56,325 bases of DNA. Origin: Planctomycetota bacterium. GTDB taxonomy: Bacteria; Planctomycetota; Phycisphaerae; FEN-1346. Position numbers and translations under genes: made by a program. The DNA lies in contig JAPLMM010000004.1 of NCBI GenBank assembly GCA_026387035.1, forward strand, positions 1-56,325, written 5' to 3'. The notes under the pieces were generated by a model. The model made no database searches, was not told the DNA's origin, and was given only the letters and a program-made list of their open reading frames with translations. Positions 40,935 to 56,324 of this stretch are shown here, piece by piece (position 1 is the first letter of the stretch; each line of letters starts with the position of its first letter).

Positions 40935-41123
40935 CATTGATCGGGAATTCGGGGGACGCAGTACCTGATTCTGGCGGAGATTTTCGGCTGAAGGCAGGCG
41001 GCGGAGTTTCGCAGCAAAACGAGGAGTCGCAGCGTGGTCGCCAGGGCCGTGAAGTCGCTCCTCCGTATCGGGAATTCACGAAAAATAGGTATCCTGGCCC
41101 CCGAATATCCACGATGAGCGACT

Positions 41124-41972
41124 CTACTTCGCCATCGACGCCGACTTGAATTGCCCCCGGATGCTCACGATTCGGGCGAGACAGTGTGCCACCATCGCGT
41201 TCAGGATGTCCTCCACCCGCGCCTTGTCCAGAAAACGAATGCCTGCTTCCGTTATCCCTCCCGGGGTTGCTACGTTCTCTATGAGCCGCTCGAGATTCGC
41301 GGTTCCTCCTTCGGTCCCCCTGGCCAGCCCCGAGAGCGTAGCAGCCACTATTTGCCTGGCAATGGAGGGCGGAATGCCAAACCGGCCGCAGAGTTTCGCC
41401 CACGTAAGTCCCAGGTGTGCCCAGAAAGCGGGGCCGCAGCCGGCAAATACGGCACAGGCGTCGATCTGCTTCTCCGGTACGCAGACGACCGGACCAAGAC
41501 CGCGAAAGAGATTTGTCACCTGCCGAAGGCTTGCAGCGGGGCTTCCTCTCGGGTGAGCGAGGAAGGAAATGCCTGCCGCTCCGGTCGTCAGTTGGGATGG
41601 GGGATGCACGTGGAACAAGCCGCCGCACCGGGGCAGCCTTTTTTTCAGCCACGAAAGCGGGACTCCCACGGCCACGGACACCACCGTGTGTCTGGGCAGG
41701 ATGGAGTCTGCCATTTTTTCGAGCAGGCTAGATATTTGTTGGGGCCTCACGCACAGGAGGACCACGTTTGATCTGGCCACGGCGGCTCTGTTGTCCGTGA
41801 CTACAGTGATGCCGAGCGCGCGGCGAATCCGTCGTGCCCTGCGAAGGTCGTGGTGCGTTCCAATGATCTGTTTCTTCCTCAGGATTCCGCGCGACAGAAA
41901 CGCCTGGACCAGCGCTGAACCTATTCTGCCAACGCCGAGAACGGACACGGTTCCTGTCCGTGTGATGCCCAC
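41124..41972 (-). CDS. Pyrroline-5-carboxylate reductase-like NAD(P)-dependent oxidoreductase
   Basis: GTG at 41972 lies 1 nt after the upstream stop. Rossmann motif VSVLGVGRIGSAL. The C-terminal motif VATPGGITEAGIRFL is typical of ProC. Confidence 0.65.
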   Translation of the reverse strand: MGITRTGTVSVLGVGRIGSALVQAFLSRGILRKKQIIGTHHDLRRARRIRRALGITVVTDNRAAVARSNVVLLCVRPQQISSLLEKMADSILPRHTVVSVAVGVPLSWLKKRLPRCGGLFHVHPPSQLTTGAAGISFLAHPRGSPAASLRQVTNLFRGLGPVVCVPEKQIDACAVFAGCGPAFWAHLGLTWAKLCGRFGIPPSIARQIVAATLSGLARGTEGGTANLERLIENVATPGGITEAGIRFLDKARVEDILNAMVAHCLARIVSIRGQFKSASMAK

Positions 41973-41973
41973 C

Positions 41974-43236
41974 TCACGCCTCCTGCCCGTGCCACAGGCT
42001 CTTCGTCCCTTCCCGCTTGCGGATGAGCCTGAATGCCTTGCCGTCGACCAGGACTTCCGCAGGCCGTAGCCGACCACAGAAATGCGAGCTCATTGAGAAC
42101 CCGTAAGCGCCGACGTCGCGGAAAACGACGAGATCGCCTTCGCGGGGCGCCGGGGCCGAGGGGATGGGCTCTGACAGGATGTCTCCGGCTGCCACCGTGT
42201 TGCCGCAGACCACCAGCCGACAGCGTTTTCCTCGGGTTCGTTTCCTGTAAATCACCGTGGTGCGATGGAACTGGCCGTAGACGTACGGTCGCGCGAAGTT
42301 GCTGAGGCCCGTGTCGCACCCGACGAACACCGTGCCGCTTCTTCTCTTGACGTCCACGACCCTGGCAACCAGAACGGCTGCGTCGCCGGTCACGCAACGC
42401 CCTGGCTCGAGTTTCAGTTCCACGGGCGCCTGCTTCTTGAGGGAAAGCGTGTGCAGGCGAGGAGAGACCTGCATCTCCAGCGCACGCCAGTCAAAGGGGC
42501 GCTCGGACTCCCTGTAGGGGATGCCGAAGCCGCCGCCAAGATCGACGTACCGGAGGTCGGGAATCTCCCGTGCCGCCGCTATGAGTTCGTCCAGTTCTCG
42601 AAGAAAATGTCCCGGGTCCAGGATGTTGGTGCCGCTGTACATCTGCAGACCGACGAGTCGCGCGCCGCTGCGCTCCGCGAGCCGTCGGGCCCTGGGGAGA
42701 TCGGCTTTGTCCACGCCCAGCCTGGAGTTGCGGCCGGCGGCCACGTTGATGGCCCCCCTGGGCGACTTCATCTCCGAATTCAGCCTGATCCCGACCTCCC
42801 TAAGCCCGCCGATCCGGATGAACTTTTCCAGTTGCCCGAGGGAGTCCGCGTTGACCGCACAGCGGGCCCGGGCGATCTTTTTGATTTCCGGTTCGGTGAA
42901 GTTGCATCCGGTCACGACGATTTCTGCCGCACTGAATCCCGCGCGCAGGGCCAGCGCGAGTTCGCCGGGCGAGGAGGCGTGCACTCCGGCTCCGCAGCCG
43001 CGCACCAGACGGAGCAGGGCCAGGTTGGCGTTGCTCATCACCGCGAAGTGTATCCGAAGGGGACGGTACCGGATCGTGTTGCGGATCCGCGCAAGTTTCC
43101 CGCGGATCCTGGCCGCATCGTAAACGTACAGCGGCGTGCCGAAACGGTCGGCAATCTCGAGTAGGCGCGTCTTTCCGACCATTGCCGGTTCGCCCCAAGC
43201 CGAAATGCTGGCACGGTTTCTGCTGACCGAAACCAC
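41974..43236 (-). CDS. Orn/DAP/Arg decarboxylase-fold (alanine racemase-like) protein with Met in place of the PLP lysine
   Basis: FGTPLYVYD, IHFAVMSNANLALLRLV (expected ..A.KAN..), GGGFGIPY and VVCGNTVAAGD. An alternative start is M19 (43182). Confidence 0.7.
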   Translation of the reverse strand: MVSVSRNRASISAWGEPAMVGKTRLLEIADRFGTPLYVYDAARIRGKLARIRNTIRYRPLRIHFAVMSNANLALLRLVRGCGAGVHASSPGELALALRAGFSAAEIVVTGCNFTEPEIKKIARARCAVNADSLGQLEKFIRIGGLREVGIRLNSEMKSPRGAINVAAGRNSRLGVDKADLPRARRLAERSGARLVGLQMYSGTNILDPGHFLRELDELIAAAREIPDLRYVDLGGGFGIPYRESERPFDWRALEMQVSPRLHTLSLKKQAPVELKLEPGRCVTGDAAVLVARVVDVKRRSGTVFVGCDTGLSNFARPYVYGQFHRTTVIYRKRTRGKRCRLVVCGNTVAAGDILSEPIPSAPAPREGDLVVFRDVGAYGFSMSSHFCGRLRPAEVLVDGKAFRLIRKREGTKSLWHGQEA

Positions 43237-43424
43237 CTTGTTCGAAAGCCCGTAGCGTTCCTGCAGCGACTACAGAGGAGCCTCTTGTATGCTAGGCCCG
43301 GCGGTTCCTCGATGCCAGGAAATTTGTGCTTGCGCCAAGGGGCCTTTCTGGCGTACACCACAGCCGAAGCGATGCGGGCGAACCACCATGCGCCTATTAA
43401 ATCCTTGCGCCACCAATATCAAAC

Positions 43425-44084
43425 ATGTGGGTCGCCACGTTGAAGATAAGGCACGACTGCATCATGGGAAACCGCTGCAGGCAGTTCAGGACGATGAGCG
43501 TAGGAATGCCGTTCAGCGTTTACACGGAACGCGGCATCACCTACGCGCCGCAGATTCACACCCTGTATGGCAGGCCGGACGACGTCAGGTCATTCATAAA
43601 CAGCCTCGCCAGAGACCCGAGGGTCAGGCACATGGAGTCTGACGGCGACACCGTGTTCCTCACGGAAGTGAGGAAAGACAGGATACCCTCCACGTTCTAC
43701 AATCCCAGGCTCATCATGGTCAGGCCTGTGGAAGTGGACCTGGACGGCTATGAATACTGGCGGCTGGCCAGTTGGGACAGGGGAGCGATCAACGCATTTA
43801 TCCTGGCGCAAAAGCGCAACAGGAACATCGAAGAAGTGAGCGTCTTGAGTCTGAGAAAAGCGCAGGTGCGGGACGTGTACGTCATGCACCTGTTTCCGGA
43901 ACTCACCGGCCAACAGAAGAGGGCGATTGAGCTTGCTCTGGAGCACGGCTATTACTCGTGGCCCAAGAGGACAGACCTGAAGAAGCTTGCGAAGGCGATG
44001 GGCGTATCCGTACAGACCTACAGGGAGCACCTGAAGAGGGCTGAAGGGAAGCTGATGCCCGAGTTCGCGAAGGCTATTAAATAG
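43425..44084 (+). CDS. HTH_10 (bacterio-opsin-activator-type) DNA-binding protein
   Basis: The C-terminus LTGQQKRAIELALEHGYYSWPKRTDLKKLAKAMGVSVQTYREHLKRAEGKLM is the HTH_10 signature. No SD is present. Confidence 0.7.
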   Translation: MWVATLKIRHDCIMGNRCRQFRTMSVGMPFSVYTERGITYAPQIHTLYGRPDDVRSFINSLARDPRVRHMESDGDTVFLTEVRKDRIPSTFYNPRLIMVRPVEVDLDGYEYWRLASWDRGAINAFILAQKRNRNIEEVSVLSLRKAQVRDVYVMHLFPELTGQQKRAIELALEHGYYSWPKRTDLKKLAKAMGVSVQTYREHLKRAEGKLMPEFAKAIK

Positions 44085-44087
44085 AGT

Positions 44088-44103
44088 GCCTTACATGTAA
44101 GGC
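44088..44103. other. Perfect 16-bp palindrome GCCTTACATGTAAGGC, 4 nt after the HTH_10 stop
   Basis: Read directly from the sequence. It could be a hairpin terminator or a dimer-binding site. Confidence 0.5.
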
Positions 44104-44399
44104 CCAAAGGTCAAGCAACGTGGCTCCGTACTTCAATTGATTGATTGGTGTGGATACTCGCGGCCGGAGCGGTTCCTGTCTGCAGCAGAAAGCCCACCAG
44201 GGGTGGTCGGTTAAGGACAGGGCCAGAGCCATGCACGCCGAGGCACAACGCCGAGAGCAGATTAGAGATTGAAGGCAACAGTGCGCACGGCGCGGCAAGC
44301 GACCCGAAGTTCAGGGTGTCGCCATGGTTGGGCCTGCATCTGCAGACAGGAGCGAGAATGACCGCAATCGGGCGGTTGAGTCGCGGCAAAGTCAGTGCG

Positions 44400-45440
44400 T
44401 CACTTGTCGGCCCTTAGCAGTCGTACGTTCCCCTTCACCCGTGCTCGCTCACAGGTCAGCAGACCAAGCCGAACGAGCTGGTTGACGTAGGCAGAGAACG
44501 TTCGTGGAGCAATGGGTTTGCGGTTCGCCTGGCTGCAACGGTCCAGGTAGGTCTCCCAGAGGGCGGTGCAGAGCACTTCCTTTTGCTGGCGCGCGATCTG
44601 GCAGAGCATCCTGTGATCCTCGGTCAGGTTGGCGAGCATCTGGCCGGACCTGGTTGCGTGGGCATCGTTCCAGCCGGCGGAGACATCGGACGGCATGATG
44701 GCCTCGTGTCCCGCCTGCTGGGCCGCCTCTGCCGCGTTCCTAAGCGTTTGAATCGCCACGCGGGCATCACCGTTGCTTACGGCCGCGATGCGTTTTGTGA
44801 GGTGAGCCGGGCACGCGTTCTGAGCGAGTGCCAGTTCCGCCCTTCGTGTGAGCATCTCGACGGCCTCTCCCGCTGAATAGGGTTCGAAACTGACCGTCCG
44901 GGGGTTGATCCTCGATACGATCCGTTTTTCCAACTCGCAGAGGGCGCCGAGGGTGTTGGATATGCAGATCAGGCCAGTGTTGCCGATGGCGTCCAGGCTG
45001 TACAGAACCCTGGCCCGCTCGCAGGGCGCGATCCTGTCTATCTCGTCCAGCAGGATGATCATACAGCGGTTGCCCAGGTGACGCTGCAACCTCTCCATCT
45101 TCACGCTGGACCGGTGTTCTTCGGCGCGGAAGATCTTCAACTCCGTGACGATCTGGTCCAGAATCTCGTACAGGGTGTCCCTGACCCAGCAGTTGACCAC
45201 CAGGCAGGGCACTGCGGTCTCTCGCTGAATCCGGGCCAGCACCGCCCTTGCGGTGGCTGTCTTGCCCGATCCCGGAACTCCATGCAGCCAGAGGTGGACC
45301 GGCTTTCGGCCGCTCCGCAGGGGCTCGAGGCGTGCCTCGATGAGCCTTGCCTGCGTGTCGCGAGCAATCAGGTCGGCCGGGACGAAGTCTTCACGAAGCG
45401 GAGCGTCATCTAGGATGATGCGCGTGGGGTGGTCGTTCAC
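44400..45440 (-). CDS. Orc1/Cdc6-family AAA+ ATPase with C-terminal winged helix
   Basis: Walker A GVPGSGKTATA, Walker B IILLDEID, sensor-1 LICISN, and sensor-2 NGDARVAIQTLRNA. The C-terminal wH reads FSAYVNQLVRLGLL. GTG start with no SD; TTTATAAA lies 22-29 nt upstream. Confidence 0.85.
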   Translation of the reverse strand: MNDHPTRIILDDAPLREDFVPADLIARDTQARLIEARLEPLRSGRKPVHLWLHGVPGSGKTATARAVLARIQRETAVPCLVVNCWVRDTLYEILDQIVTELKIFRAEEHRSSVKMERLQRHLGNRCMIILLDEIDRIAPCERARVLYSLDAIGNTGLICISNTLGALCELEKRIVSRINPRTVSFEPYSAGEAVEMLTRRAELALAQNACPAHLTKRIAAVSNGDARVAIQTLRNAAEAAQQAGHEAIMPSDVSAGWNDAHATRSGQMLANLTEDHRMLCQIARQQKEVLCTALWETYLDRCSQANRKPIAPRTFSAYVNQLVRLGLLTCERARVKGNVRLLRADK

Positions 45441-45554
45441 AATGACGATATGAAGCTAAACTTTATAAATGTGTCCGTTGTGGGGCGCGGAGCATGCTGG
45501 TGACGGATCAAGCGGGGCTGTGTGGAAAGTCACCATGCGGCACGAGATGAGAAC

Positions 45555-46133
45555 TCAGATCCATACCTGCCGTGACTGGAAATTCACGCGGTGTTGTTTG
45601 AGAGCGAGCTCGATTCTGCGGCAGCCGTCCCGGGGAAGAAGGAAACAACCGCTGGACAGCCGGATGCCACCGAGGTCAGCCAGCAGGCCGCGATACTGGT
45701 ATCCTGCGGTCTTGCGGGCATAGAGCAGTCTATTGAATCTGGCCTTTTGGGGTTGGGGGAGGCCTTTCAGACTGAACGTGTACAAGGCGAAGGGCTTCAG
45801 ATCCAAGAGACGGGCTGCGGGGAGATCGAGTGGCTCCTTCAAGAAAAGAATCTTGCCTTCGCGGAAGATGTTGCGGAGCAGGCCCGTATCCATTTTTCTG
45901 ATCTGTTGGAGGGAGCGGATGGTGGGTTGGATCTCGCGGCCGAATTCCCGCTCTGCGAGGCATTCGTTGACGACTCTGGCTTGGCTGGGCCTGCGCACGA
46001 GGATGAGCAGGTCCACGTCGGACTTCGGGCCGTGGTCGCCACGGGCGAAGCTGCCGTAGAGTACAATGGCCACCACGCCAGGCAGCCGGCCAACGGTCTT
46101 CACGATCCTGCTCACGAGTCTGTGCTGTTCCAT
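45555..46133 (-). CDS. MNT-type nucleotidyltransferase (antitoxin-like) with C-terminal extension of about 80 aa
   Basis: LYGSFARGDHGPKSDVDLLIL matches the GS-x10-DxD motif. The C-terminal beta-alpha-beta-beta-alpha-beta pattern (ALYTFSL...GIRLSSGCFLLP...VNF) is of unknown function. Confidence 0.7.
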   Translation of the reverse strand: MEQHRLVSRIVKTVGRLPGVVAIVLYGSFARGDHGPKSDVDLLILVRRPSQARVVNECLAEREFGREIQPTIRSLQQIRKMDTGLLRNIFREGKILFLKEPLDLPAARLLDLKPFALYTFSLKGLPQPQKARFNRLLYARKTAGYQYRGLLADLGGIRLSSGCFLLPRDGCRRIELALKQHRVNFQSRQVWI

Positions 46134-46483
46134 ATTCGCCTGCCCAGTCTTTTCTCGAGGAATTGCGCAAAGGTCTTGAGATGTCTCATCACCAGTCGGG
46201 CGCGATGACCGTTCGTGCCATCATAGCCCAGGTCACCATAAGCGAACCATATCTTCCTCATGGCGACGGTGATCTGGTGAGGATACTCGCGGTTGGCAAA
46301 GCCCTGTCTCTCGTGATGGGTTCCGAAGTGCATGCCATGACCGGCCGCGTCTGCTTCGATGAGTTGCTCCACGACTTTGATGGCCAAGTCACCCACCACC
46401 GTATGCTGGTGCCTCCTGTAGGCCTCCTGTAATGCGGAGAGCTTCTCCCTTGCGATCTTGAGGTGCTGGTCGCTGTCTCCCAT
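46112..46483 (-). CDS. HEPN-domain protein (toxin-like partner of MNT)
   Basis: ATG at 46483 (MGDSDQHLKIA...). Helical, with an R-x6-H motif (RARLVMRH). It overlaps the MNT start by 22 nt. Confidence 0.55.
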   Translation of the reverse strand: MGDSDQHLKIAREKLSALQEAYRRHQHTVVGDLAIKVVEQLIEADAAGHGMHFGTHHERQGFANREYPHQITVAMRKIWFAYGDLGYDGTNGHRARLVMRHLKTFAQFLEKRLGRRIWNSTDS

Positions 46484-46812
46484 GCAGATCTGCGCTTTTC
46501 TACGGCGCGCCTGCGGTGGAACGTTGAAGCGCGGATGAGGGGCGGGAAGCCCTTCCTGACGAGTTGAGAGGGCGGCACTGCCGTCAGGAACGCGTTCGCA
46601 GGCACCCTCTGCCATTGCATGAGAGCCCTCCTCGCAAACCTTTTAAGCCACCACGCCTAACAGTCTTCATGAGGGCGGAAATCAAGGCCTGGTGGGTACT
46701 ACGTGGCACCAACGACCGCCGATCGTGCTACCACAATCCTGGCAGGGGGCTCTATTGGGGGAATACCGAGACAGGAGAGGAGATAAGTAGTGCCAAGGAA
46801 CCCTCTCCTGGA

Positions 46813-47784
46813 CTACTCCCCCAGGGCGGGACAAGCCAGCTCTGATCTGCGTCCGGATTCGAGGCCGCGGCACCACCTAAACAGCCTGTCCCGGTCGAGC
46901 ACCAACGATCCGTTCGGAAGAATGTGACCTATCCGATTCTCATCAAGGTACAGTTTCACCGTGCACTTGTTGATCGCGCCATCAGCCCGGATCGCAAGCG
47001 AATTGAGCCTGGCAGCATAGCAGATGGGGATGAAATGGCTGGTCGTGATGCAGCGGGCTCCCTTGGATTGGGCATAGGCGCGCACTTGCCTGGCCCGTCG
47101 GTGGCCCTGTTCCAGAGAAAACACCGGCAGGTGCGCGTCGTCGGGACATCCCAGTCGAGACAGCGGTCTTGCGAAAAGACGGAACCGCGAATCGCCGCCG
47201 AACACGCGTGCATACTCGTCGACGAACGGCGGAAGGGCCCGGTAGTTCTCTTTGTCGAGATGGAGCCGAACCAGAATCGTGCATTGTTCCCTGGTGTTCC
47301 GTATGTCGAGCAGGTTTCCCCAGATCCTGTCGAACGTGCCCTTGCCCCCGGCGAGCACGCGCTTCTTGTCGTGAACGTCCCTGGGGCCGTCGAAGGCAAT
47401 TTGAAACTCCCTGACCCCGAGGCACACCAGCGTCTTGAGCGTGCCTGGCGTCAACAGGTACCCGTTGGTGGTCATGTCGGCGCCGTATGCCAACTGCGGC
47501 TTACGACAGATCAGGGTCCGAATGTGCCGCGAGATGTCCTTGATGATGTCCAGCGCCAGGAGAGGTTCGCCGCCGAACCATGATATACTGAGCGCGCTCA
47601 GGTCCGCCATCCGTGCGCGCAGCAGGTTCTTGATACCTGTAACCACGTCCGAGGCCATCTTGCCACCGCGGACCACCTCGTAGCAGTACGAACATCGGAA
47701 GTTGCAGGCCTCGGTGGGATAAAGGATAAGGTGCAATCGATCGCCGGCAACAGCGGCCAGCATGTCCGGTGCGGTCAGCCGCAT
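46813..47784 (-). CDS. Radical SAM enzyme with C-terminal Cys-containing (SPASM/twitch-like) extension; putative peptide maturase
   Basis: LYPTEACNFRCSYCY matches CxxxCxxC, and SWFGGEPLL is also present. C-terminal Cys residues occur in PICYAA, INKC, RWC and ACP. SD GAGGA lies 8 nt upstream. Confidence 0.8.
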   Translation of the reverse strand: MRLTAPDMLAAVAGDRLHLILYPTEACNFRCSYCYEVVRGGKMASDVVTGIKNLLRARMADLSALSISWFGGEPLLALDIIKDISRHIRTLICRKPQLAYGADMTTNGYLLTPGTLKTLVCLGVREFQIAFDGPRDVHDKKRVLAGGKGTFDRIWGNLLDIRNTREQCTILVRLHLDKENYRALPPFVDEYARVFGGDSRFRLFARPLSRLGCPDDAHLPVFSLEQGHRRARQVRAYAQSKGARCITTSHFIPICYAARLNSLAIRADGAINKCTVKLYLDENRIGHILPNGSLVLDRDRLFRWCRGLESGRRSELACPALGE

Positions 47785-47809
47785 TCGCGATGTCCTCTGA
47801 ACCGGGCGA

Positions 47810-48142
47810 TCAGGCGCAATTGCACAGCGTCAGTTGGCACCCGCATTGCGCCACGCATGTGCACATGCTATCGGGCCGAGGGCATCCGCACCCGATATTC
47901 GTATGTCCGCCGCAGCCGCCTCCACTTACCGGGGGAGGGCAGAAACTGTCCGGCAGGCAGTATGAATTCGCGGCGAGTACCCGAGTTTTCTGCTTCTTTA
48001 GTTTCTTAATCATCCGTGCTAGTTTTGGATCTTTGATGACCACCCTTCCGTAATTGTCGACATCCATGCATTTCAGGTGAAACGTGACAATGGGCTTCGC
48101 TTTCCCGGGCGCACTCTTTTTCGCCTTCGGCCGCTTCTTCAT
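47810..48142 (-). CDS. Lys-rich leader plus Cys-rich core peptide (candidate RiPP precursor)
   Basis: AAAGGAG lies 9 nt before ATG 48142. The sequence ends NSYCLPDSFCPPPVSGGGCGGHTNIGCGCPRPDSMCTCVAQCGCQLTLCNCA. It stops 25 nt before the radical SAM start. Confidence 0.6.
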   Translation of the reverse strand: MKKRPKAKKSAPGKAKPIVTFHLKCMDVDNYGRVVIKDPKLARMIKKLKKQKTRVLAANSYCLPDSFCPPPVSGGGCGGHTNIGCGCPRPDSMCTCVAQCGCQLTLCNCA

Positions 48143-48381
48143 GACCACACGCTCCTTTCGAGGTACGTACGGTTTGGACGCAAGAACCCTGCCGGAGACT
48201 CCGCGGTTATCCGCACCGAAGTGTTCTTGGGTCGGCGCACATCTCCCCTAGCAAGAGACTGCCTCCCATCCCATACCAGGATAATCGATGCAACTTGCGC
48301 GACCTTATCCAATCCGCGCCGGAATGTCAACACCCTTGCACCCTGACTTGTGGTTCGTCCCGTTAGGGTCGCCCCATTAGA

Positions 48382-48692
48382 TCGCACCATTTGGCTTGAC
48401 ATGGCGCGATGGCCCCCTATGATGACAACCGGTCTTCCTGAAAAGGTTCAGATTTGGTGCGAAGTCTGAACCGAGTTTTCTTCCTGCCGGCGTCCTCCCT
48501 TACGGTTTTTCCGATTCGGAGTGACGCTTTCTGCCCATAGCCTTCCAGCCTATCTCGTCAGGCCCTTTGACTGCTGTGCTTATTAACCCCTCGCGCCAAC
48601 AGTAGGCCGTGGGCCGCTACTACGCATGCGCCGGGCCCGGACAGCCTTTCCGGCCATCCCGAAAAGGTTCACTTTTCGCACCATTTGAGAAC
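48382..48692. promoter_or_regulatory. Three copies of a TCGCACCA(T/A)(T/A)T core, two embedded in GGTTC...GAACC hairpin-like elements; candidate recombinase sites
   Basis: tcgcaccatttg occurs at 48382-48393 and 48676-48687 (direct repeat). tggtgcgaa at 48455-48463 is the reverse complement of ttcgcacca at 48675-48683. The flank c(c/t)gaaaaggttca is repeated at 48437 and 48658. Confidence 0.5.
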
Positions 48693-48727
48693 CTTCGGGG
48701 AATGGGGGCTGACACGCGTGGGGAAGA

Positions 48728-49357
48728 ATGGCTCAGGTCAATTGGGTTCTGGATCCGGGCAAGTGTCTTACGCCGGCAGAGGTCAGACGGCTGCGCTGCG
48801 CGTCGAAGAAAGAGGCCCGGGCTGCGCAAGCAGCAGGAAAGAATGTGCCCGTGCGGGACCACTTCATCGTCGAACTGGCCCTCGCCACCGGCCTGCGCGT
48901 GATGGAGATCACGCGGCTCAGGTGCGGCGACGTGTTTACGGACAAGCGCCAGCCCTGGCTCATTGTCCGGGCTGGGAAGGGCGGCCGGCGGAGAGTGGTC
49001 TGGTTCAGTGCCTCGTTCGGGCAGTGCCTCAACGAGTACCTGGACTGGAAGACGGCAGCAGGGGAACTGGTCGGACAGGAAGATCCGTTGCTCCGGTCCA
49101 GCAACACCGGCAACTGCCTGACGACGCGGGCGGTCCAGAAGGCGTTCAAACGCTGTGCGGCCCGGGCGGGGCTTCCGAGCCGCCATTCCATTCACGGCCT
49201 GCGGCACACCTACGCCTGCGCGCTTTACAAGGCGAGCGGCTACAACCTGCGCCTGGTCCAGAAGCAGCTGGGACACGCGAGGATTGTGACAACCCAGGTG
49301 TACGCGGACGTGATGGCCCCGGACGTCCGGCGGGCCCTCGAGCGGCTGTACCGTTAG
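48728..49357 (+). CDS. Short (209 aa) tyrosine recombinase, catalytic domain only
   Basis: LALATGLRVMEI (Arg), HGLRHTYA (H-x-x-R) and LGHARIVTTQVYADV (His...Tyr). There is no N-terminal core-binding domain. Confidence 0.85.
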   Translation: MAQVNWVLDPGKCLTPAEVRRLRCASKKEARAAQAAGKNVPVRDHFIVELALATGLRVMEITRLRCGDVFTDKRQPWLIVRAGKGGRRRVVWFSASFGQCLNEYLDWKTAAGELVGQEDPLLRSSNTGNCLTTRAVQKAFKRCAARAGLPSRHSIHGLRHTYACALYKASGYNLRLVQKQLGHARIVTTQVYADVMAPDVRRALERLYR

Positions 49358-49435
49358 ACCATCGGAAGCATTTAAGGCCGCGTCGGCAATTAGTAAACGG
49401 AGGGTGCCGGACGCGCGCACTCCGATGGTGGTCGT

Positions 49436-49975
49436 TTGGGTCTGGCGTGGATTCTGAAGAAACTCCTGTGGGCGAATGCGTTCGGCACGGAACAGGGCCG
49501 CATCAAGTTGTTCGGCAAGATGAACTGGACGCTGTTCCCGTCCCGCGCCCTGGCGCTGAACCTGCAGACGATCGGCGAGAAACTCGGCGAAGACTTTGTC
49601 TACGAGTTGGGCTACCAGGCCGGCAAGGACGCGGCCGAGGAGATCGTCAAGTACATGGGCTTGCGGCCTCGAGGCGGGTGGGCGACGCAGAAGGCCGTGA
49701 TCTCGCTGCTCGAGTTCATCGGCTTCGGGAAACCCGAGTTTGTGCACGTGAAAATCAAGGGCCGCCACCATCACATCATTGTCCACGTGCGGGACAACCC
49801 TGTCATCGAGCACGGCGCGAGGATGTTCGGCGCCAGGTCCGTGGCGTGCAAGTGGTTCATGGGCGTCTACGCCGCTCACGGCGAGATGGAACTTGGCGTC
49901 AGACACGTCCGCCTGAAAGAGAACAGGTGCATCCGCCTGGGGGACCCCTACTGTGAGTGGGAGACGAAAGCGTAA
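49436..49975 (+). CDS. V4R-domain protein
   Basis: The C-terminus ends in RLGDPYCEWE, and the overall pattern resembles 4-vinyl-reductase-type small-molecule-binding domains. The TTG start is uncertain. Confidence 0.5.
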   Translation: MGLAWILKKLLWANAFGTEQGRIKLFGKMNWTLFPSRALALNLQTIGEKLGEDFVYELGYQAGKDAAEEIVKYMGLRPRGGWATQKAVISLLEFIGFGKPEFVHVKIKGRHHHIIVHVRDNPVIEHGARMFGARSVACKWFMGVYAAHGEMELGVRHVRLKENRCIRLGDPYCEWETKA

Positions 49976-50009
49976 GAATTGCAGCCGTCCGAATGGCATT
50001 CTCGCCCGC

Positions 50010-50765
50010 ATGGCGGTCAGGGTGGGCAGGCCCATCGTGCGGCACCTGAGCGAACTCGCGCGCGAGTCTCTGCGACAGCCCGGCAGTTGGCGGTGCTTGG
50101 AGATCGTCTATCGGAACGAGCCGCGAACACTGCTCGACCGATTATGGCTGTCGAGCCGGGCTGCCCGCGGCGCGAGGAACCGGCTCCAGATTCTGACGGA
50201 AGAACTCTGTGCGATTGTCCTAGAGCGTGCCCAGAGGGACGGGACCGTGAATCTCCTGAGCCTTGGTTCTGGTCCAGGCCACGAAATCCTCGGTTGCCTC
50301 GAGCAGGTGCAGGACTGCATACATGTCGAAGCCACCTGTGTGGATCGGGACCCGGAAGCCCTTCGGTACGGAAGAATGCTGGCTGCCCAGAAAGACCTGG
50401 ACGGAAGCGTGAATTACGTTCGCGGCAACGTCCTCGGTGCGGACGCCCTGCCGGCCTGCCAGGATGTAGCCGTACTCTCCGGCCTGCTGGACTATTTTGA
50501 TTCAGAGGCCGCCGTGTCGGTGCTCACGAGGGTTCGCGAGAAACTCAAACCAGGCGGCATCGTTCTCTTGGCCAACATGCGCCGCCACCGCCTGGCCTCA
50601 ACCATGAGCCTTCTTGGGAACTGGCAGCTGGTCTATCGAGAACCCTCGGAGGTTGAGCGGCTTCTGGCCGAGAGCGGGTACTGCGAAGTGGAGGTCTGGC
50701 TCGAGCCCGAAAAGGTGTTCTGCATCGGAAGTGGGGGCATTCTTTCTACCACTGCACAGCCTTGA
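50010..50765 (+). CDS. Class I SAM-dependent methyltransferase
   Basis: Motif I LLSLGSGPGHEI. Also CVDRDPEAL, and post-II/III GGIVLLANM. I chose the start at ATG 50010 to avoid overlap with the V4R gene. Confidence 0.65.
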   Translation: MAVRVGRPIVRHLSELARESLRQPGSWRCLEIVYRNEPRTLLDRLWLSSRAARGARNRLQILTEELCAIVLERAQRDGTVNLLSLGSGPGHEILGCLEQVQDCIHVEATCVDRDPEALRYGRMLAAQKDLDGSVNYVRGNVLGADALPACQDVAVLSGLLDYFDSEAAVSVLTRVREKLKPGGIVLLANMRRHRLASTMSLLGNWQLVYREPSEVERLLAESGYCEVEVWLEPEKVFCIGSGGILSTTAQP

Positions 50766-50837
50766 CCGGCCTCGTGGCGCAGACTTGAGCACACGTACCC
50801 ATCGTATAGCCAAGCGCCCGTCAGCCCACCATGAGCC

Positions 50838-51974
50838 TTAGGGGGAACGGCTGTCCAGGGGCACGAACTCGAACCGCCGGATGATCACTTCGTGGGTTTG
50901 CTCGTTCTTCGGTGCTCGTCCACCGAGCAGCCAGAGGTTCATCCGTACATTCTCCCCGCCTGCCTGCGGGACCCCCTCTTGGGAAAACGTCCACTCTTGG
51001 ATCAGAGATCCCGCGGACTCCAGACCAGACGCTTGCTCCTTAACAGATCGGAACACCACCTTGTCGCTGCTCCAGGTGAAACTGTGGATCCCGGGGGTGA
51101 CCTCAGGTGGGATTCGGTACCGTATCAGACGGCCAGGTTGTTGCGCGGGCTGGACGACAAACTGCGCGTTCGTCTTGTCCTCAGCTTGCCCCCATCGGGC
51201 GAACTCAATGTCGATCTCCCGATGGCTTTGTGCCGGGTCATCGCTCCATGTAAACAGGCCGAGGACCACGTTTGGGTCCAAATCATCGGCTCGGCTATCG
51301 ACGCGGAATCGGTAGGTGCCGTAGCCGAAAGATTGTTTCGATATTATCTCTGCACACTGCCATTGGTCGTTGCGGTGGGTGATCTTGAGATGCAGGCGAC
51401 CTTCGTCATCAACCCACACGTTGTCGGCACTGTCCGAGAAATAATTGGGCCCCGGCCCAACCGGCATTTGGCTGGACTTCACGCGCCACACGTAACCCGA
51501 AAAACGAAGTGTTTTTTCCTTCTTGTTTTCCTCACCGGCGCTAGCCTGCGCGATAGCCAATACATCGCCACCCACCTCAGGTAGCACCCGTGTTGTGCTC
51601 GGCGGCTTGTAGGATGATTTGACCAAGAGGGCTGCGTACTTGTACCCACCATGTGTGTCGGCTTTCCACTTGCCATCCTTACCGATCTCGGTGTAAGGGG
51701 CGGCCACGAACGGTTGGACGTACCACATGTCGCCGTACGCGTAGATAACTACCCTGTAGTCGTCCGGCTTGACGCCGCTTACGGTGCCCTCGATGGTGCC
51801 CCACGAGTCTGGGCCCGGTTTCACGCTGTCCGGCGGCGAGCGCGTAATGATGATGCCGGGCTCAGCGCCCCCTGCTTTCCCCTCGTCACCAAGAGCCGTT
51901 GCCCCGGCGAGAGTGCAGAAGACTATTGCGACCGCGCCTATCCCCAACCACAAAGTGATGAGATTACTTTTCAT
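50838..51974 (-). CDS. Secreted GH16/concanavalin-like glycoside hydrolase with an N-terminal domain shared with the next gene
   Basis: Signal peptide. HREIDIEF matches the ExDxE catalytic motif of GH16-type folds. The N-terminal domain of about 110 aa is paralogous to that of 52074-52814. Confidence 0.6.
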   Translation of the reverse strand: MKSNLITLWLGIGAVAIVFCTLAGATALGDEGKAGGAEPGIIITRSPPDSVKPGPDSWGTIEGTVSGVKPDDYRVVIYAYGDMWYVQPFVAAPYTEIGKDGKWKADTHGGYKYAALLVKSSYKPPSTTRVLPEVGGDVLAIAQASAGEENKKEKTLRFSGYVWRVKSSQMPVGPGPNYFSDSADNVWVDDEGRLHLKITHRNDQWQCAEIISKQSFGYGTYRFRVDSRADDLDPNVVLGLFTWSDDPAQSHREIDIEFARWGQAEDKTNAQFVVQPAQQPGRLIRYRIPPEVTPGIHSFTWSSDKVVFRSVKEQASGLESAGSLIQEWTFSQEGVPQAGGENVRMNLWLLGGRAPKNEQTHEVIIRRFEFVPLDSRSP

Positions 51975-52073
51975 GGTGCCTCATCCTTTCTTGCCACAGT
52001 ATGCACCAGCACCCGTGCGGTGCGGGGGAGGCCGTGGCCCTGCCTCCCCGGTTTTTTTGAACCATTTTGGAGA

Positions 52074-52814
52074 CTATCTTCGGCCTTCGACGACGGTGAT
52101 GGCCACCACGTCGTCCCCGAGGGACGGCAGAACAGGTGTTTGGGCCGGCGGTTTAAACCCTCGACGCACTACCAGCGCCGCATATTGCGTCCCCGTATGC
52201 GTCCAGGTGCCCCAGCTGCCGTCCGGCGCAATTTCGGTACCCGGGCTCTCAATGAGCGGCTGTACGTACCAGGCATTGGTGAGAACATATACAACCACCC
52301 GAAACAGGCTCGGATCAACGCCTGATGTTTTCCCCGCAATGTTGGCCGCGGTTTCTGCCCCTCCGTGTTCGCTGTACGGGGGAACGGTTGTCATCTTGAT
52401 CGCTCGAACGGTCACGATCTTGATCTCCGGGGAGGGCACGGGCGGAGGGCTGCCCGATCTCGGGGGAAGGATCGTCAGTAGCAGGGCTTTTGAAAACAGG
52501 GTCTTGGCCCCATGACGAACCTCCAGCGTCACTCTATCCTCTCCGGCCTCTTGCGGAGCGGTGTAACGGCTAGAAAGATCCATGTCCTCACTGGGCTCGC
52601 ATACGCCTCTCTCAGCAATGGCGTGTAGTCTCAGCCCTTGCGGTGGGTTCGTCACCCGAACACCGACAAGGGCATTGCCTCCAGCGGCGACGGCGGAGTC
52701 GGGGGTCACGAATACCTCAAATTGCGGCTCAGGTGCACAGCCGCCCAGGGACACGCTCAGCACAACCACCGCAAGAATCCAGGGGCCGGAAAAGGATGTG
52801 GCCTGTTGTTTCAT
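52074..52814 (-). CDS. Lipoprotein with Ig-like region and the same conserved domain as the GH16-like protein
   Basis: MKQQATSFSGPWILAVVVLSVSLGGC contains a lipobox. FRVVVYVLTNAWYVQPLIESPGTEIAPDGSWGTWTHTGTQYAALVVRRGFKPP parallels YRVVIYAYGDMWYVQPFVAAPYTEIGKDGKWKADTHGGYKYAALLVKSSYKPP. Confidence 0.55.
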   Translation of the reverse strand: MKQQATSFSGPWILAVVVLSVSLGGCAPEPQFEVFVTPDSAVAAGGNALVGVRVTNPPQGLRLHAIAERGVCEPSEDMDLSSRYTAPQEAGEDRVTLEVRHGAKTLFSKALLLTILPPRSGSPPPVPSPEIKIVTVRAIKMTTVPPYSEHGGAETAANIAGKTSGVDPSLFRVVVYVLTNAWYVQPLIESPGTEIAPDGSWGTWTHTGTQYAALVVRRGFKPPAQTPVLPSLGDDVVAITVVEGRR

Positions 52815-52834
52815 GCGCCTTCCCTCCCAGCTTT

Positions 52835-53689
52835 TCATGGGTGCGAACCCATACGCTCTGCCTCACCCCTTTCGATGATGTACCGAACCGCATCACGTCG
52901 CACAACCTTGTCGGGCAACGACACCCACGGCACTTTCCAATGAAGTCTTATTTCGATTTCGCCGTCGCGGTCTTCCCCTGGGTGATCGTCTCGCTTCCGC
53001 AGCCTGACCAGGGCGTAGCCGTGGCCAGGGGACCAAGCCCTGCTGTGCAATCGCTCTTCGTCGCTCTGCCAGTAGCGAGATGTCAGTTGAACAGAGTAAA
53101 GTTCCGGGTGGGCTATGGCAAGGGAAATCTGCAACACCTCACCGCCGCCGACTGCCGGGAGGCTCATAAACACACATTCTCCGAAATCGAAATCTGGCGC
53201 CGGCAGATTCAGCACCCAAACATTGTAGAGTAGGGTTACCACGGCTAATACCACAGCTAGTAACGCGAGGGCGATGAGGATACGGATGATTCGGGTAGCC
53301 AAAGATCTTTTCCGTGGAATAGCACTGTCAACCCAACGGACGAATCGCACTGTGAGATCAGCCAATCGCCCTGCTAGTCCACACGCAGCACGCTCTGCAA
53401 AGGTTGCCAGTCGCACCACCATTTCACGCAGAGACACCCCTCGGATCTCGGCTATCAATTTCAGTATGGCGAGCCATGTCGGAAGTAGGAAGAGGTATCG
53501 ACGGTAGAGTGGGAGCTTGTCCCACGGGTTTGGCAGCCATATCGCCGCGACGAGAGGAAATACGAAAACTATGACAATCCATGTGATAATCTCGGATATG
53601 ACGTGGGTTTCTTGTGCCCCCGAGGATATCCCAGAGGCCTCGTGCGGTGTTACTGCCCCTTGCCCGTCGCTGGCTTGATGCATGTCCAC
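52835..53689 (-). CDS. Hypothetical polytopic membrane protein
   Basis: Several TM helices. Its stop overlaps the alternative ATG at 52838 of the downstream ORF (ATGA). No motif recognised. Confidence 0.5.
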   Translation of the reverse strand: MDMHQASDGQGAVTPHEASGISSGAQETHVISEIITWIVIVFVFPLVAAIWLPNPWDKLPLYRRYLFLLPTWLAILKLIAEIRGVSLREMVVRLATFAERAACGLAGRLADLTVRFVRWVDSAIPRKRSLATRIIRILIALALLAVVLAVVTLLYNVWVLNLPAPDFDFGECVFMSLPAVGGGEVLQISLAIAHPELYSVQLTSRYWQSDEERLHSRAWSPGHGYALVRLRKRDDHPGEDRDGEIEIRLHWKVPWVSLPDKVVRRDAVRYIIERGEAERMGSHP

Positions 53690-54236
53690 ATCCCCCTAGC
53701 GCTGCCTCGACCCTTTCTCGGTTGGGGTCGTAGGTCTCGCAGCGCCGTGCCTGTGTTCTCGCCTGGCGGTCGGCACCACGATGCTGACTACGCAGCACGC
53801 GGTTACAGACAATTGCGGAAATCCCTCGAGTCAGAGTCCGCGCTCATAATTCTTGAATTGCAGAATCGACCGTTCTTTCTGCTGATTTTCATTCTATAAG
53901 AGCGAGTATAGCTTTCACGGGAAAGTTGTCAAGAGTTTTTTGGTTCATGGTTCAAAACCATTTGCACCGCGGTCGTTCCTGAGCACGGTGGGCAAACTTG
54001 GACCAATAAAGTCCCCTGTCCGCGAACCCCTTCTTGCTCATCGACAAGTGGGCTGATTCGGCGGCTGATTCGGCGTGCCCCCGATCTGGCGTTCTTCGAC
54101 TGTACCAGAGGGAAGTCGTGTCACGGATACCCCTTTCGCCCAAGTGATCTGCGTGTTCCGCGCCGCGAAGGGGTGAGTATGAGGGTTCTGGCCTCAGGCC
54201 TTTCGAGAATGGTGCTGAAGCGCGAAGCGGCCAGCG

Positions 54237-56324
54237 CTACGCCGTTACGAAGCGTTCGAGTGTTTCGCTTCCCGTCACTACAGTTGTGTTTGGACAAGAC
54301 ATGAGCCTCCTGGCAAGCGAGTCCCTCCGGCTCGTGGACGTGGCGACAACGAAAACCGTCCGCATTTCCGCCTCCAGGCACTTCTGGACGTTGGCTGCCG
54401 CGTCGGATTCACCGGTCTCGATCTCGAAGGCAATGCGCTCGTTGCCGCGCGAGGCGACGAGGTCGATGGTCTTGCCGCCGCCAATCGGATACTCTTCGGT
54501 GACCTCGTAGCCACAGGATTTCAGGTGCTCGGCAAGGCGGCGCTTCCAGTAGGTATGCACCGGCCCGCCGTTCCTGTTTGAAGCGGCGTTGGGCAGCCCA
54601 AGCGCCTGCCTTCCTTCTTCTGTCAGGGCGAGGATTTTCCCACTACCGCCACGGAGGGAGATGCTTGCCGACTCGATAAGCCTCCGATCTATCAGGGCGC
54701 GCTGGATTGCAGTGCCTTTTCGCGCCGGTAAGGCCAGACGACAATACCGATCCACCACAAAAGATGTTGGACGTTCCTGAACGTCCATCAGAAATTTTCG
54801 TTCCTGCGTTGTAAGCCGAATTGCGCACTCATCCCCCATCATCCCCTCGTCTCCTTTTTCCTTTTTTGGAATAGTAATCTTAATGTCATCTTGCGTGGCG
54901 TCTTGCCCGGAATCCGCCGCAGACGCCGGAATCGGAGCGGAATGTGTCTCTCGACGTGATGGTTCCAAAGGGGAGGGAGTCGGCAACAGATTTGCTCGTT
55001 CCCTTATCGTCTGGTCGCTGACGCGCCCCTTGTCTATCTTGACGAGCGGCAACCTGACCAGGAACGGCCAGAACCAGCGGCCCTGGAGTTTGGCGACCGC
55101 CCAGCCCACTTCGAGCCGGCCCAGGTAATCGGTCTGCTCGCTGTTCAAGAGGAGGCAATCCTGCATCATGGCAAGGTCGCCGCGATGTTTAAGATTAAAG
55201 GCGAAGGTGGTGTAGGTGTTGCCGAGGGCGGGCTTCGAGATCAGGCTGGGATGCTGGTCCAGGCAGATGATGGCCTCTCCCAGTTCGCGGATCTCCCTCA
55301 GGATGACGTCGGTGACGGTCTCTTCGCCCGTGGCCTCCTGCTTCTTCCGCAGCAGGATGTGGTGGGCCTCCTCGATGAAGACGGCGTGCTTGAACTCCTC
55401 GCGGTCCGGCTGGCCCATGCGGTAATGGTGGATCCAGAGGAGCAGGGATTCGATCAGGAAGGTCTTGTCCGCGTTGGTCAGGGCGTCAAGTTCAAGGACC
55501 ACCTGGCGGTTGAGAAGGTCCGCGACGTCGAAGGGGGCCTCGCTGTTCAGCACGCGGCCCATCTCGCCGAAGCAGAGGACCTCCACGGCGCGCATGGCAG
55601 ACTCCATCCAGCCGGCCTCCCTGCCTTTGGTTTTCCGCTCGAGCAGGAAGTTCCTGACGTCTGCCAGGGTGGGCATGCGTACCGGCGCCCCGTCGTAGAC
55701 GCCGAATCGCCGGTACAGGCTGTCGATGGCCCGCATGAGCAGAACCGTCACGCCTTCGCCGAGAAAATAGGCGTGGCACATGATCTCGATGAGTTTCTTC
55801 AGCCACACCGTCGCCTGGGTCCCCGGCGGCGGGATCAGCGGGTTGAAGTGGAACGGTGCCACGTTTCTGCCCACGGTCAGCACGACGAGATCGCCGCATT
55901 CGGGCAGGGAGAGCAGGTCGCGGTAGTTGCGCTTCCAGTCAAAGACCAGAAAGGGCTTACCGGCCCTGATGAGGTCGAGCACCAGAAGGTAGGCCAGGTT
56001 GGTCTTGCCGCTGCCCGAGCGGCCGAAGATGCCGATGTGCTGGATGAATTCCTCCTCGCGTATGCCGAAAGGGTACTGCGGTTCCTGTGCGTAGTACACC
56101 TGGCCCGCCGGGTAGTCGCCGGCAACCAGCGCGGCGGGTGGGGGCTTGAGAAGAACCTGACTGCTCTCGAAGGTCTCGTCCAGCCTCTGAGCCAGTTCGA
56201 TGCGGAGGACGCGTTCGATTTCCCTGCGGACTGAAGCGTCGGAAACCACGTACTCCTGCCAGAGGAGGTCGAGTTTTGGTCCCATCACAGGCCTGAGTTT
56301 GCGGAAGACGTCATCGATCTTCAT
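54237..56324 (-). CDS. HerA/FtsK-superfamily (DUF87-like) ATPase fused to a winged-helix domain and a C-terminal PD-(D/E)xK-like nuclease domain
   Basis: Walker A GIFGRSGSGKTN and Walker B AVFIEEAHHIL. wHTH RKGTAIQRALIDRRLIE. The C-terminus reads GGKTIDLVASRGNERIAFEIETGES...NVQKC. The ATG is 1 nt from the window edge. Confidence 0.75.
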   Translation of the reverse strand: MKIDDVFRKLRPVMGPKLDLLWQEYVVSDASVRREIERVLRIELAQRLDETFESSQVLLKPPPAALVAGDYPAGQVYYAQEPQYPFGIREEEFIQHIGIFGRSGSGKTNLAYLLVLDLIRAGKPFLVFDWKRNYRDLLSLPECGDLVVLTVGRNVAPFHFNPLIPPPGTQATVWLKKLIEIMCHAYFLGEGVTVLLMRAIDSLYRRFGVYDGAPVRMPTLADVRNFLLERKTKGREAGWMESAMRAVEVLCFGEMGRVLNSEAPFDVADLLNRQVVLELDALTNADKTFLIESLLLWIHHYRMGQPDREEFKHAVFIEEAHHILLRKKQEATGEETVTDVILREIRELGEAIICLDQHPSLISKPALGNTYTTFAFNLKHRGDLAMMQDCLLLNSEQTDYLGRLEVGWAVAKLQGRWFWPFLVRLPLVKIDKGRVSDQTIRERANLLPTPSPLEPSRRETHSAPIPASAADSGQDATQDDIKITIPKKEKGDEGMMGDECAIRLTTQERKFLMDVQERPTSFVVDRYCRLALPARKGTAIQRALIDRRLIESASISLRGGSGKILALTEEGRQALGLPNAASNRNGGPVHTYWKRRLAEHLKSCGYEVTEEYPIGGGKTIDLVASRGNERIAFEIETGESDAAANVQKCLEAEMRTVFVVATSTSRRDSLARRLMSCPNTTVVTGSETLERFVTA

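Follow-up and report, generated by a model that had tools for sequence, protein, structure and literature searches.

Genes at the Orc1L locus

The stretch of DNA analysed here, called the window below, is the whole 56,325-nt contig JAPLMM010000004.1 (C97) of the Planctomycetota assembly GCA_026387035.1, and the longest contig of this metagenome-assembled genome (MAG). It carries a 346-aa open reading frame (ORF) with a GTG start and the full Orc1/Cdc6 architecture, which we name Orc1L, and this report concerns Orc1L and its linkage to a DNA translocase fused to a nuclease-like domain. Orc1/Cdc6 proteins are the textbook origin binders of archaea and eukaryotes, and the family marks origins in archaea, their plasmids and their viruses. 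Convergent with Orc1L is a gene for an HTH_10 DNA-binding protein, and the HerA/FtsK-type translocase gene, called the partner hereafter, lies upstream on the same strand as Orc1L (Table 1). The MAG amounts to 2.55 Mb in 317 contigs, with 95% completeness, 2.8% contamination and 66.4% GC. Its rpoB gene places it in Planctomycetota, the nearest named relatives being Phycisphaerae (73%) and two MAGs labelled "Anaerolineales" (L015 and L016), which, with an rpoB 83% identical to that of this planctomycete, look mislabelled.

Table 1. Position of the features discussed in the text, with the evidence for each.
Feature	Position	Strand	Evidence and remarks
Operon of overlapping ornithine/diaminopimelate/arginine (Orn/DAP/Arg)-decarboxylase-like (41974-43236) and pyrroline-5-carboxylate (P5C)-reductase-like (41124-42077) genes	41124-43236	-	Pfam; divergent from HTH_10
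HTH_10 DNA-binding protein, 219 aa	43425-44084	+	Pfam PF04967; N-terminal two beta-alpha-beta-beta units; DPANN-archaeal family
Spacer between the convergent HTH_10 and Orc1L genes, 315 nt	44085-44399		Imperfect inverted repeat and hairpin
Orc1L, Orc1/Cdc6-like AAA+ ATPase, 346 aa	44400-45440	-	AAA+ base, lid and C-terminal winged helix, without insert between; Pfam, NCBIfam, PDB alignment
Orc1L upstream region, 114 nt, with TTTATAAA at 45462-45469	45441-45554	-	Sequence and comparison with L008 and L009
Variable cargo, ~8.8 kb	45498-54264		blastn against L009 (247 nt there); Pfam and PADLOC scans
Tyrosine recombinase, 209 aa	48728-49357	+	Pfam Phage_integrase 6e-29; tblastn
Partner, HerA/FtsK-type P-loop ATPase (DUF87), 695 aa, with disordered linker, winged helix-turn-helix (wHTH, ~506-567) and predicted PD-(D/E)xK-like nuclease (~587-684)	54237-56324	-	Pfam, AlphaFold2 (AF2) model, fold search

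The two ORFs, their convergent arrangement and their Orc1/Cdc6 and HTH_10 motifs had been reported in an earlier note on this contig (the original prediction); all are present in the translations, and Pfam, NCBIfam and PDB comparisons agree. The Orc1L translation holds GVPGSGKTATA, IILLDEID, LICISN and GDARVAIQTLRNA. Pfam returned Cdc6_lid (3e-11), AAA_22 (4e-11) and Cdc6_C (5.6e-5), with further matches to AAA_16 and AAA; the Cdc6_C match is weak (23.5 bits, for a cut-off of 25.1 bits). The orc1/cdc6 model of NCBIfam, TIGR02928, gave 168.4 bits (E 2e-49), which does not reach its curated cut-off of 181.3 bits. With phmmer against the PDB, Orc1L matched Orc1-1 of S. solfataricus (2QBY_A, E 6e-28). 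Residues 10-331 of Orc1L are colinear, with few gaps, with residues 8-348 of 2QBY_A and 12-349 of A. pernix ORC1 (2V1U_A). The lid, the winged helix and the helical insert after strand 2 all appear to have their counterparts in the solved archaeal Orc1 structures, as judged from this alignment. Because Orc1L has only 346 aa and is colinear with archaeal Orc1, there is no space for an inserted domain. Walker A, Walker B, sensor 1, arginine finger and sensor 2 of the AAA+ ATPases were all found, and GxxGxGKT (54-61), DExD (132-135), R173/S176/R177 and the sensor 2 motif GDAR (224-227) are invariant across 32 homologues. The ratio of nonsynonymous to synonymous substitution rates (dN/dS) is 0.13-0.25, and the gene is therefore under purifying selection. 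As far as can be read from its sequence, Orc1L keeps every feature of a DNA-binding initiator.

A role of Orc1L in replication of the host chromosome is not supported. The MAG contains two full-length dnaA genes, both above the curated cut-off (G000:C245:6417-7787 and C227:2192-3487, with 462 and 388 bits). At 95% completeness, it yields only weak cross-matches to the MCM model, of at most 26 bits, the same as all bacterial controls. With two dnaA genes and no genuine MCM, Orc1L is therefore not the chromosomal initiator. A complete and conserved Orc1/Cdc6 protein is thus maintained in bacteria that replicate with DnaA and without MCM.

The DNA on either side of the gene was searched for signs of an origin. 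Repeats resembling origin recognition boxes (ORB), which it had been suggested to look for in the spacer, in the upstream region and in homologous loci, were not found: there are neither ORB-like direct repeats nor an AT-rich tract in the two intergenic regions, and no origin-like repeats or AT-rich unwinding tracts lie next to Orc1L in five related loci (L009, L010, L011, L232 and L233), the repeats of L233 falling within a Sel1-repeat gene. The spacer contains a 23-nt imperfect inverted repeat (44174-44196 / 44329-44351) and a hairpin (44088-44103). It was also considered as a structured RNA and rejected, its RNA folding z-scores of -1.3 and -1.5 not being significant. The box described upstream of the GTG start, which resembles an archaeal TATA box but could equally be a bacterial -10, was confirmed, as TTTATAAA is located 22 nt 5′ of it, and the similar TATTAAAT is found ~24-32 nt 5′ of the HTH_10 ATG. 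By inspection, Shine-Dalgarno sequences are absent before both genes. The upstream region of Orc1L is 100% identical in an independently assembled 3.6-kb contig, L008 (DATKWP010000289.1), and its first 57 nt are common to L009, the closest relative of the window for the module described below.

The Orc1L family and its genomic company

A search of 5.8 billion proteins produced 258 relatives of Orc1L. Few of them are named; these are annotated as "AAA family ATPase" and come from Planctomycetota, Sedimentisphaerales, Chloroflexi and Aenigmarchaeota, and some of the contigs that carry them are 200-525 kb long. An exhaustive search of 1.84 billion cluster representatives gave only 144 Orc1L-like clusters at E≤1e-30. 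Within the phylum, Orc1L was detected in 2 of 400 sampled genomes (E≤1e-20), and strong matches were obtained in 2 of 21 genomes of the family. A profile scan with one genome per species revealed 27 loci, distributed among Planctomycetota, Verrucomicrobiota, Chloroflexota, Bacteroidota, Ignavibacteriota, Zixibacteria, Bacillota, Thermodesulfobacteriota, Pseudomonadota, Aminicenantes, Acidobacteriota and, with two loci, Aenigmatarchaeota. The nearest relatives of Orc1L itself are planctomycete.

In a maximum-likelihood tree (quick search), the Orc1L family formed a clade (SH-aLRT 93) apart from the primary Orc1/Cdc6 proteins of five DPANN genomes, whose TIGR02928 scores are 350-440 bits and to which Orc1L is ~25-30% identical. 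The nearest neighbours of the clade were secondary archaeal Orc1 paralogues; archaeal sampling was small, the primary copies coming from these five genomes, so that the rooting is provisional. The Aenigmatarchaeota copies were scattered among the bacterial ones. Branching does not follow taxonomy, which indicates repeated horizontal transfer. We conclude that the Orc1L clade is small, patchy and horizontally spread, over at least 10 bacterial phyla and Aenigmatarchaeota.

The neighbours of Orc1L were counted by tblastn over 29 loci of the family, up to 10 kb from Orc1L. Gene calls near three metagenomic relatives had a DUF87 protein of ~700 aa and small genes adjoining Orc1L. A DUF87 protein, 41-75% identical to the partner of the window, was present at 18 of the 29 loci, a gene for a ~160-aa coiled-coil protein at 14, and one for a ~121-aa protein at 8. 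Small tyrosine recombinases were found at five loci; four are 57-63% identical to the recombinase of the window, and the one in L120 is 30% identical. Loci with this module span Planctomycetota, Chloroflexota, Bacteroidota, Bacillota, Thermodesulfobacteriota, Zixibacteria, Aminicenantes and others. The identities of Orc1L and DUF87 to their counterparts in the window are roughly parallel (69/75% in L010, 46/61% in L011, 37/41% in L115). Gene order is variable, with Orc1L upstream, downstream or divergent, and in several loci variable genes sit between Orc1L and DUF87 (for a 1280-aa protein of no recognised family, a phosphoribosyltransferase-like protein, an NYN nuclease or a Sel1-repeat protein). 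A compact four-gene cassette can nevertheless be defined, for instance in L010 (6974-11044). Further genes in the neighbourhoods of the family encode type I restriction-modification (RM) systems, methylases, SIR2, NOV_C, ThiF, NACHT, AbiEii, Schlafen/AlbA, NYN, toxin-antitoxin (TA) and integrase proteins.

In L009, the two genes are 81.6% (DUF87) and 91.3% (Orc1L) identical in DNA to those of the window (blastn), and are separated by 247 nt, against 8.8 kb in the window. The partner gene of the window is complete, its ATG being 1 nt from the contig end. DUF87 was recognised by Pfam (3e-9). In an AF2 model of the partner, built with 16 homologues (pLDDT 81), a disordered linker (449-501) joins the HerA/FtsK P-loop domain to a winged helix (506-567), behind which comes an alpha-beta-beta-beta-alpha-beta unit (587-661). 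Residues D621, E634 and E636 of the latter part are invariant among homologues, and on the strength of this model the C-terminal part is a nuclease of the restriction endonuclease (REase) fold, predicted to be active. The best fold match in the PDB was the C-domain of DndH (7ES4, E 7e-14, TM 0.73); next came HerA, VirB4, TrwB and, from the SIR2-HerA and DUF4297-HerA defence complexes, the HerA subunits. PADLOC gave weak model matches only (mad8 7e-10, HerA 4e-6). A second fragment of a HerA/FtsK-wHTH-nuclease gene, 53% identical, was found on a 2.35-kb contig of the MAG (G000:C93:3-962), which suggests that a second module is present.

The cargo that separates Orc1L from the partner contains an MNT/HEPN-like gene pair, a radical SAM protein with a Cys-rich peptide, the tyrosine recombinase, a methyltransferase, a GH16-like protein and two unknowns. 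Recombinases 57-63% identical to that of the window adjoin the module in L011, L102 and L103, and another is located close to Orc1L in an Aenigmatarchaeota contig; in these Sedimentisphaerales and Aenigmatarchaeota loci, the recombinase is better conserved than Orc1L (38-46%). It may serve the element for mobility or inversion. A 471-aa ORF on the opposite strand (48620-50035, minus) was discarded as a shadow of the true plus-strand recombinase gene. The GH16-like protein (378 aa, 50838-51974) and one of 254 aa and unknown type (52074-52838) have a 102-aa domain in common, at 47% identity. Both Orc1L and its partner belong to a flexible island of low GC, ~28 kb long, which also holds Rhs toxins.

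A predicted conflict module and the alternatives

We favour, with a probability of somewhat under 60%, the reading that Orc1L and its partner form a mobile Orc/Cdc6 and HerA/FtsK-nuclease module of genetic conflict, split here by cargo and standing beside an unrelated regulator of archaeal origin. By analogy with related systems, the module is a predicted anti-invader system. Among the possibilities raised by the original prediction, a co-opted, defence-related AAA+ protein is the best supported one, by the HerA/FtsK-nuclease linkage and by the islands with RM, SIR2, NACHT, TA and integrase genes. In the mechanism that we propose, Orc1L would bind double-stranded DNA in an ATP-dependent manner, through its initiator-specific motif and its winged helix. 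It would then either mark the target DNA, which might be a plasmid entering the cell, a phage genome or an intermediate of replication, or recruit the ring-forming HerA/FtsK-nuclease there; the translocase would pump the target DNA and the fused nuclease would cut it. A parallel may be proposed with archaeal Orc1, which recruits the MCM ring. In the window, both units are intact but parted by the 8.8 kb of inserted cargo, small tyrosine recombinase included. The linkage to a HerA/FtsK-nuclease offers a concrete idea of what an Orc1/Cdc6 protein may do outside replication, namely target or load a DNA motor in genetic conflict. The narrower proposal, that a bacterial Orc1/Cdc6 is a DNA-recognising loader placing a ring motor other than MCM, the HerA/FtsK translocase-nuclease, onto foreign DNA, is tentative and more open to doubt than the module itself. 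If true, the principle of origin licensing would here be turned to immunity, on an element moving between bacteria and DPANN archaea.

The module resembles systems predicted by comparative genomics only (PMC10853773; Nucleic Acids Res 2024;52:1005). That article describes mobile neighbourhoods in which a DndH-related HerA/FtsK and an Orc/CDC6 ATPase occur with a wHTH, an active REase and a second REase that is inactive and "invariably inserted" within the Orc/CDC6 protein, between its AAA+ core and its wHTH. Orc/CDC6 is proposed there to give the restriction apparatus its location, and HerA/FtsK to intercept the invading DNA, and the systems are predicted to act against selfish elements; the accessible part of its supplement contains no Orc/CDC6 entries. 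Our loci have in common with these systems the Orc/CDC6 protein, a HerA/FtsK protein closest to DndH, a REase-like nuclease, a wHTH, defence-island contexts and a sporadic distribution across phyla. There are two differences: the compact, 346-aa Orc1L lacks the inactive REase insert, and the wHTH and nuclease are here fused to the HerA/FtsK protein, which is accompanied by the ~160-aa coiled-coil and ~121-aa proteins. The separate 121-aa protein might be the free-standing counterpart of the inactive REase. As all of these features are shared except the insert, we regard the module as a variant of the predicted kind and not as a member. SIR2-HerA, DUF4297-HerA and DndFGH likewise couple a HerA/FtsK-type ring ATPase to a nuclease or effector, and provide best structural matches for the partner; however, they have no Orc/Cdc6 protein, and their effector is either separate (SIR2, DUF4297) or part of the much larger DndH.

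Several observations weigh against this interpretation. At 11 of the 29 loci, no DUF87 gene was seen in the available DNA. The genes for the ~160-aa and ~121-aa proteins are absent from the whole assembly; given this and the 8.8-kb separation, the copy of the window may be uncoupled or incomplete. PADLOC found no known defence system for Orc1L, our literature search found no experimental study of any such module, and the loader analogy is pure inference. In L009 and L010, genes of the DUF2958 and DUF6876 types, typical of plasmids and integrative conjugative elements (ICE), lie downstream of Orc1L, and tyrosine recombinases are frequent near the module; these genes and recombinases suit the maintenance of a mobile element equally well.

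This leads to a different explanation, in which the module serves the replication and maintenance of an integrated or episomal element: Orc1L would be its initiator, HerA/FtsK would drive the partition or transfer of its DNA in the manner of TraB from actinomycete ICEs, and the recombinase would integrate the element. Orc1L retains all the features of a DNA-binding initiator, with the full-length architecture and the catalytic and DNA-binding elements of the archaeal proteins (2QBY_A, 2V1U_A, TIGR02928), and it belongs to a family known for marking origins in archaea. Small tyrosine recombinases are conserved beside the module, and L009 and L010 present long same-strand arrays of small genes of no assigned function, among them those for DUF2958 and DUF6876. 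A tblastn search of a plasmid collection with Orc1L gave 277 records at ~30% identity, with names that are predominantly or entirely haloarchaeal, and the only two matches in a phage collection are haloarchaeal viruses. Yet no close homologue was found on a bacterial plasmid or phage in these sequenced collections. Unlike the archaeal initiators, Orc1L scores below the TIGR02928 cut-off, falls in a separate clade, has no adjacent origin or MCM gene, and resides in a host that uses DnaA. The window and the five related loci named above lack ORB-like arrays and AT-rich tracts, and neither MCM nor another replicative helicase was found in the module or in the MAG. A motor for partition or transfer would not usually carry the nuclease that is invariably fused to the translocase here. 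Finally, among the genes scanned in L009 and L010 there were no relaxase, type IV secretion system or capsid genes, and no viral hallmark was recognised with PHROGs. We hold an element initiator, the main alternative to our reading, to be rather unlikely. The original prediction had joined this role to inter-domain transfer, and the two parts fare differently: transfer is borne out by the archaeal acquisition of HTH_10 and by a mobile Orc1L clade placed among secondary archaeal paralogues, while nothing supports the initiator role, ORB-like repeats and MCM being missing and two dnaA genes present.

It could also be that Orc1L acts alone as a DNA-binding regulator, uncoupled from HerA/FtsK in this genome. 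There is an archaeal precedent in Sulfolobus Orc1-2, a DNA-damage regulator (PMC6061795). The loci devoid of a nearby partner (11 of 29), the distance between the two genes in the window, the missing small genes and the fact that Orc1L has its own upstream region, fully conserved in L008, would all suit such a protein. But its ATPase motifs are fully conserved and linkage to DUF87 is the dominant pattern of the family, so that we consider a solitary regulator improbable.

The HTH_10 regulator and the integrity of the contig

The HTH_10 protein has the LT..Q..A.ELA...GYY..PR signature and matches PF04967 over residues 160-211 (E 3e-18, 65.6 bits for a cut-off of 23.1 bits). It has 26 relatives in the databases, of ~217 aa and 29-85% identical; those looked up have archaeal chromosomal settings, with a ribosomal operon, primase, PCNA, aIF5B, EF-1beta and MCM. 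Taxonomy by record title makes 78 of 80 genome loci archaeal, mainly Woese-, Pace-, Nano-, Micr-, Iain- and Aenigmarchaeota, the non-archaeal ones being L008/L134 and one unclassified "bacterium" MAG. The gene of the window has 58% GC against a median of 37% for the DPANN loci, and its product is Arg-rich where the archaeal counterparts are Lys-rich; it has therefore been ameliorated, and is not a fresh contaminant. Orc1L and HTH_10 had been treated as a pair, which the comparison does not bear out, HTH_10 being found at 0 of 29 other Orc1L loci and Orc1L at 0 of 79 other HTH_10 loci. HTH_10 is clearly a separate acquisition from DPANN archaea, outside the Orc1L module. It represents a clean DPANN-to-planctomycete transfer, which may bring a conserved metabolic target along.

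This target would be the divergent operon. DPANN loci have genes of the same types flanking HTH_10 (eight loci, a DAP-decarboxylase-like gene following in five and a P5C-reductase-like gene in three), and for this reason HTH_10 likely regulates the decarboxylase/P5C-reductase operon. The pair also exists, without HTH_10, in a Desulfobacteraceae contig (L231, 54% identity). Arrival of the decarboxylase from archaea together with HTH_10 was considered and rejected, since the closest relative with a name, that of Desulfobacteraceae, is bacterial. Separate paralogues of the two enzymes, housekeeping-like and 27-31% identical, are present in the MAG, so that the pair constitutes an accessory two-enzyme pathway. 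Compared with L008, synonymous divergence (dS) is 0.10 for HTH_10, 0.12 for Orc1L and 0.26 for the decarboxylase, and the 188-nt divergent promoter region (43237-43424) is 73% identical, with flanks at 91-97%. This low identity and the doubled dS suggest a recombination boundary.

Like the haloarchaeal Bat-type activators, the protein carries its HTH_10 domain at the C-terminus. Unlike them, its subfamily of 217-219 aa, which is almost exclusively DPANN, has its own N-terminal domain, modelled by AF2 (pLDDT 85) as two tandem beta-alpha-beta-beta units. A fold search with the model gave weak matches only, the best meaningful one being Ta1207 (5M86, TM 0.48), and ligand binding by this domain therefore stays a guess. 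We found no described function for the subfamily.

The contig itself might be an artefact, archaeal-looking genes having been mis-joined or mis-binned with bacterial DNA, and a chimeric join had been placed at 41-43.4 kb. The secretin-based type II secretion system (T2SS) reported on the same contig is indeed present, with Secretin, T2SSE and T2SSF matches in Pfam (GspE, GspF). Its block (10-27 kb) has the composition typical of the genome, whereas from 27.5 to 56 kb, and also from 1 to 10 kb, GC is ~60%, compared with 66.4% over the MAG, and the tetranucleotide profile is atypical. Moreover, the MAG is fragmented and slightly contaminated, as stated above, and the near-identical L008 sits in a MAG of another phylum. 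Several results oppose a mis-join. There is no break at 41-43.4 kb in GC or tetranucleotide profile. GC runs low-high-low along the contig, and the two low-GC ends have one common tetranucleotide signature (distance 0.013), which also occurs in 55 of 663 windows, spread over many further contigs of the MAG that are typical elsewhere; this points to a recurrent class of flexible genome rather than a one-off mis-join. L008 reproduces the order decarboxylase-HTH_10-Orc1L-nucleotidyltransferase over 42.1-45.8 kb at 91-100% nucleotide identity, and L009 independently links DUF87 to Orc1L. Counterparts of the Rhs cassettes and of a 126-nt element are present in genomes of the same family and genus. 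The nearest Orc1L relatives are planctomycete, and the archaeal-type genes of the window have 58-60% GC, far from the DPANN median. A chimeric join at 41-43.4 kb is unlikely, and an artefact of any kind very improbable.

The Orc1L of L008 is 96% identical to that of the window. The MAG to which L008 belongs is labelled Anaerolineae, and its rpoB is only 52-69% identical to that of the present MAG; the contig is either mis-binned or recently transferred. Many short low-GC patches (57-62%) with the tetranucleotide signature of the 28-56 kb region occur on G000 contigs C223, C178, C159, C233, C194, C276 and others, and the MAG seems to hold numerous islands of this one compositional class. DNA-level synteny with genomes of the same genus and family was uninformative, as only multicopy T2SS and Rhs segments and the 126-nt element matched, and tblastx against G002:C110 gave noise only. 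No tRNA gene or Rfam family marks an integration site in the window. The 126-nt element is non-coding (40943-41068) and 84% identical to G002:C110:9394-9512 of the same genus, where its context is unrelated. It is single-copy in the MAG and has no Rfam match, and it could be a small RNA or the end of a mobile element.

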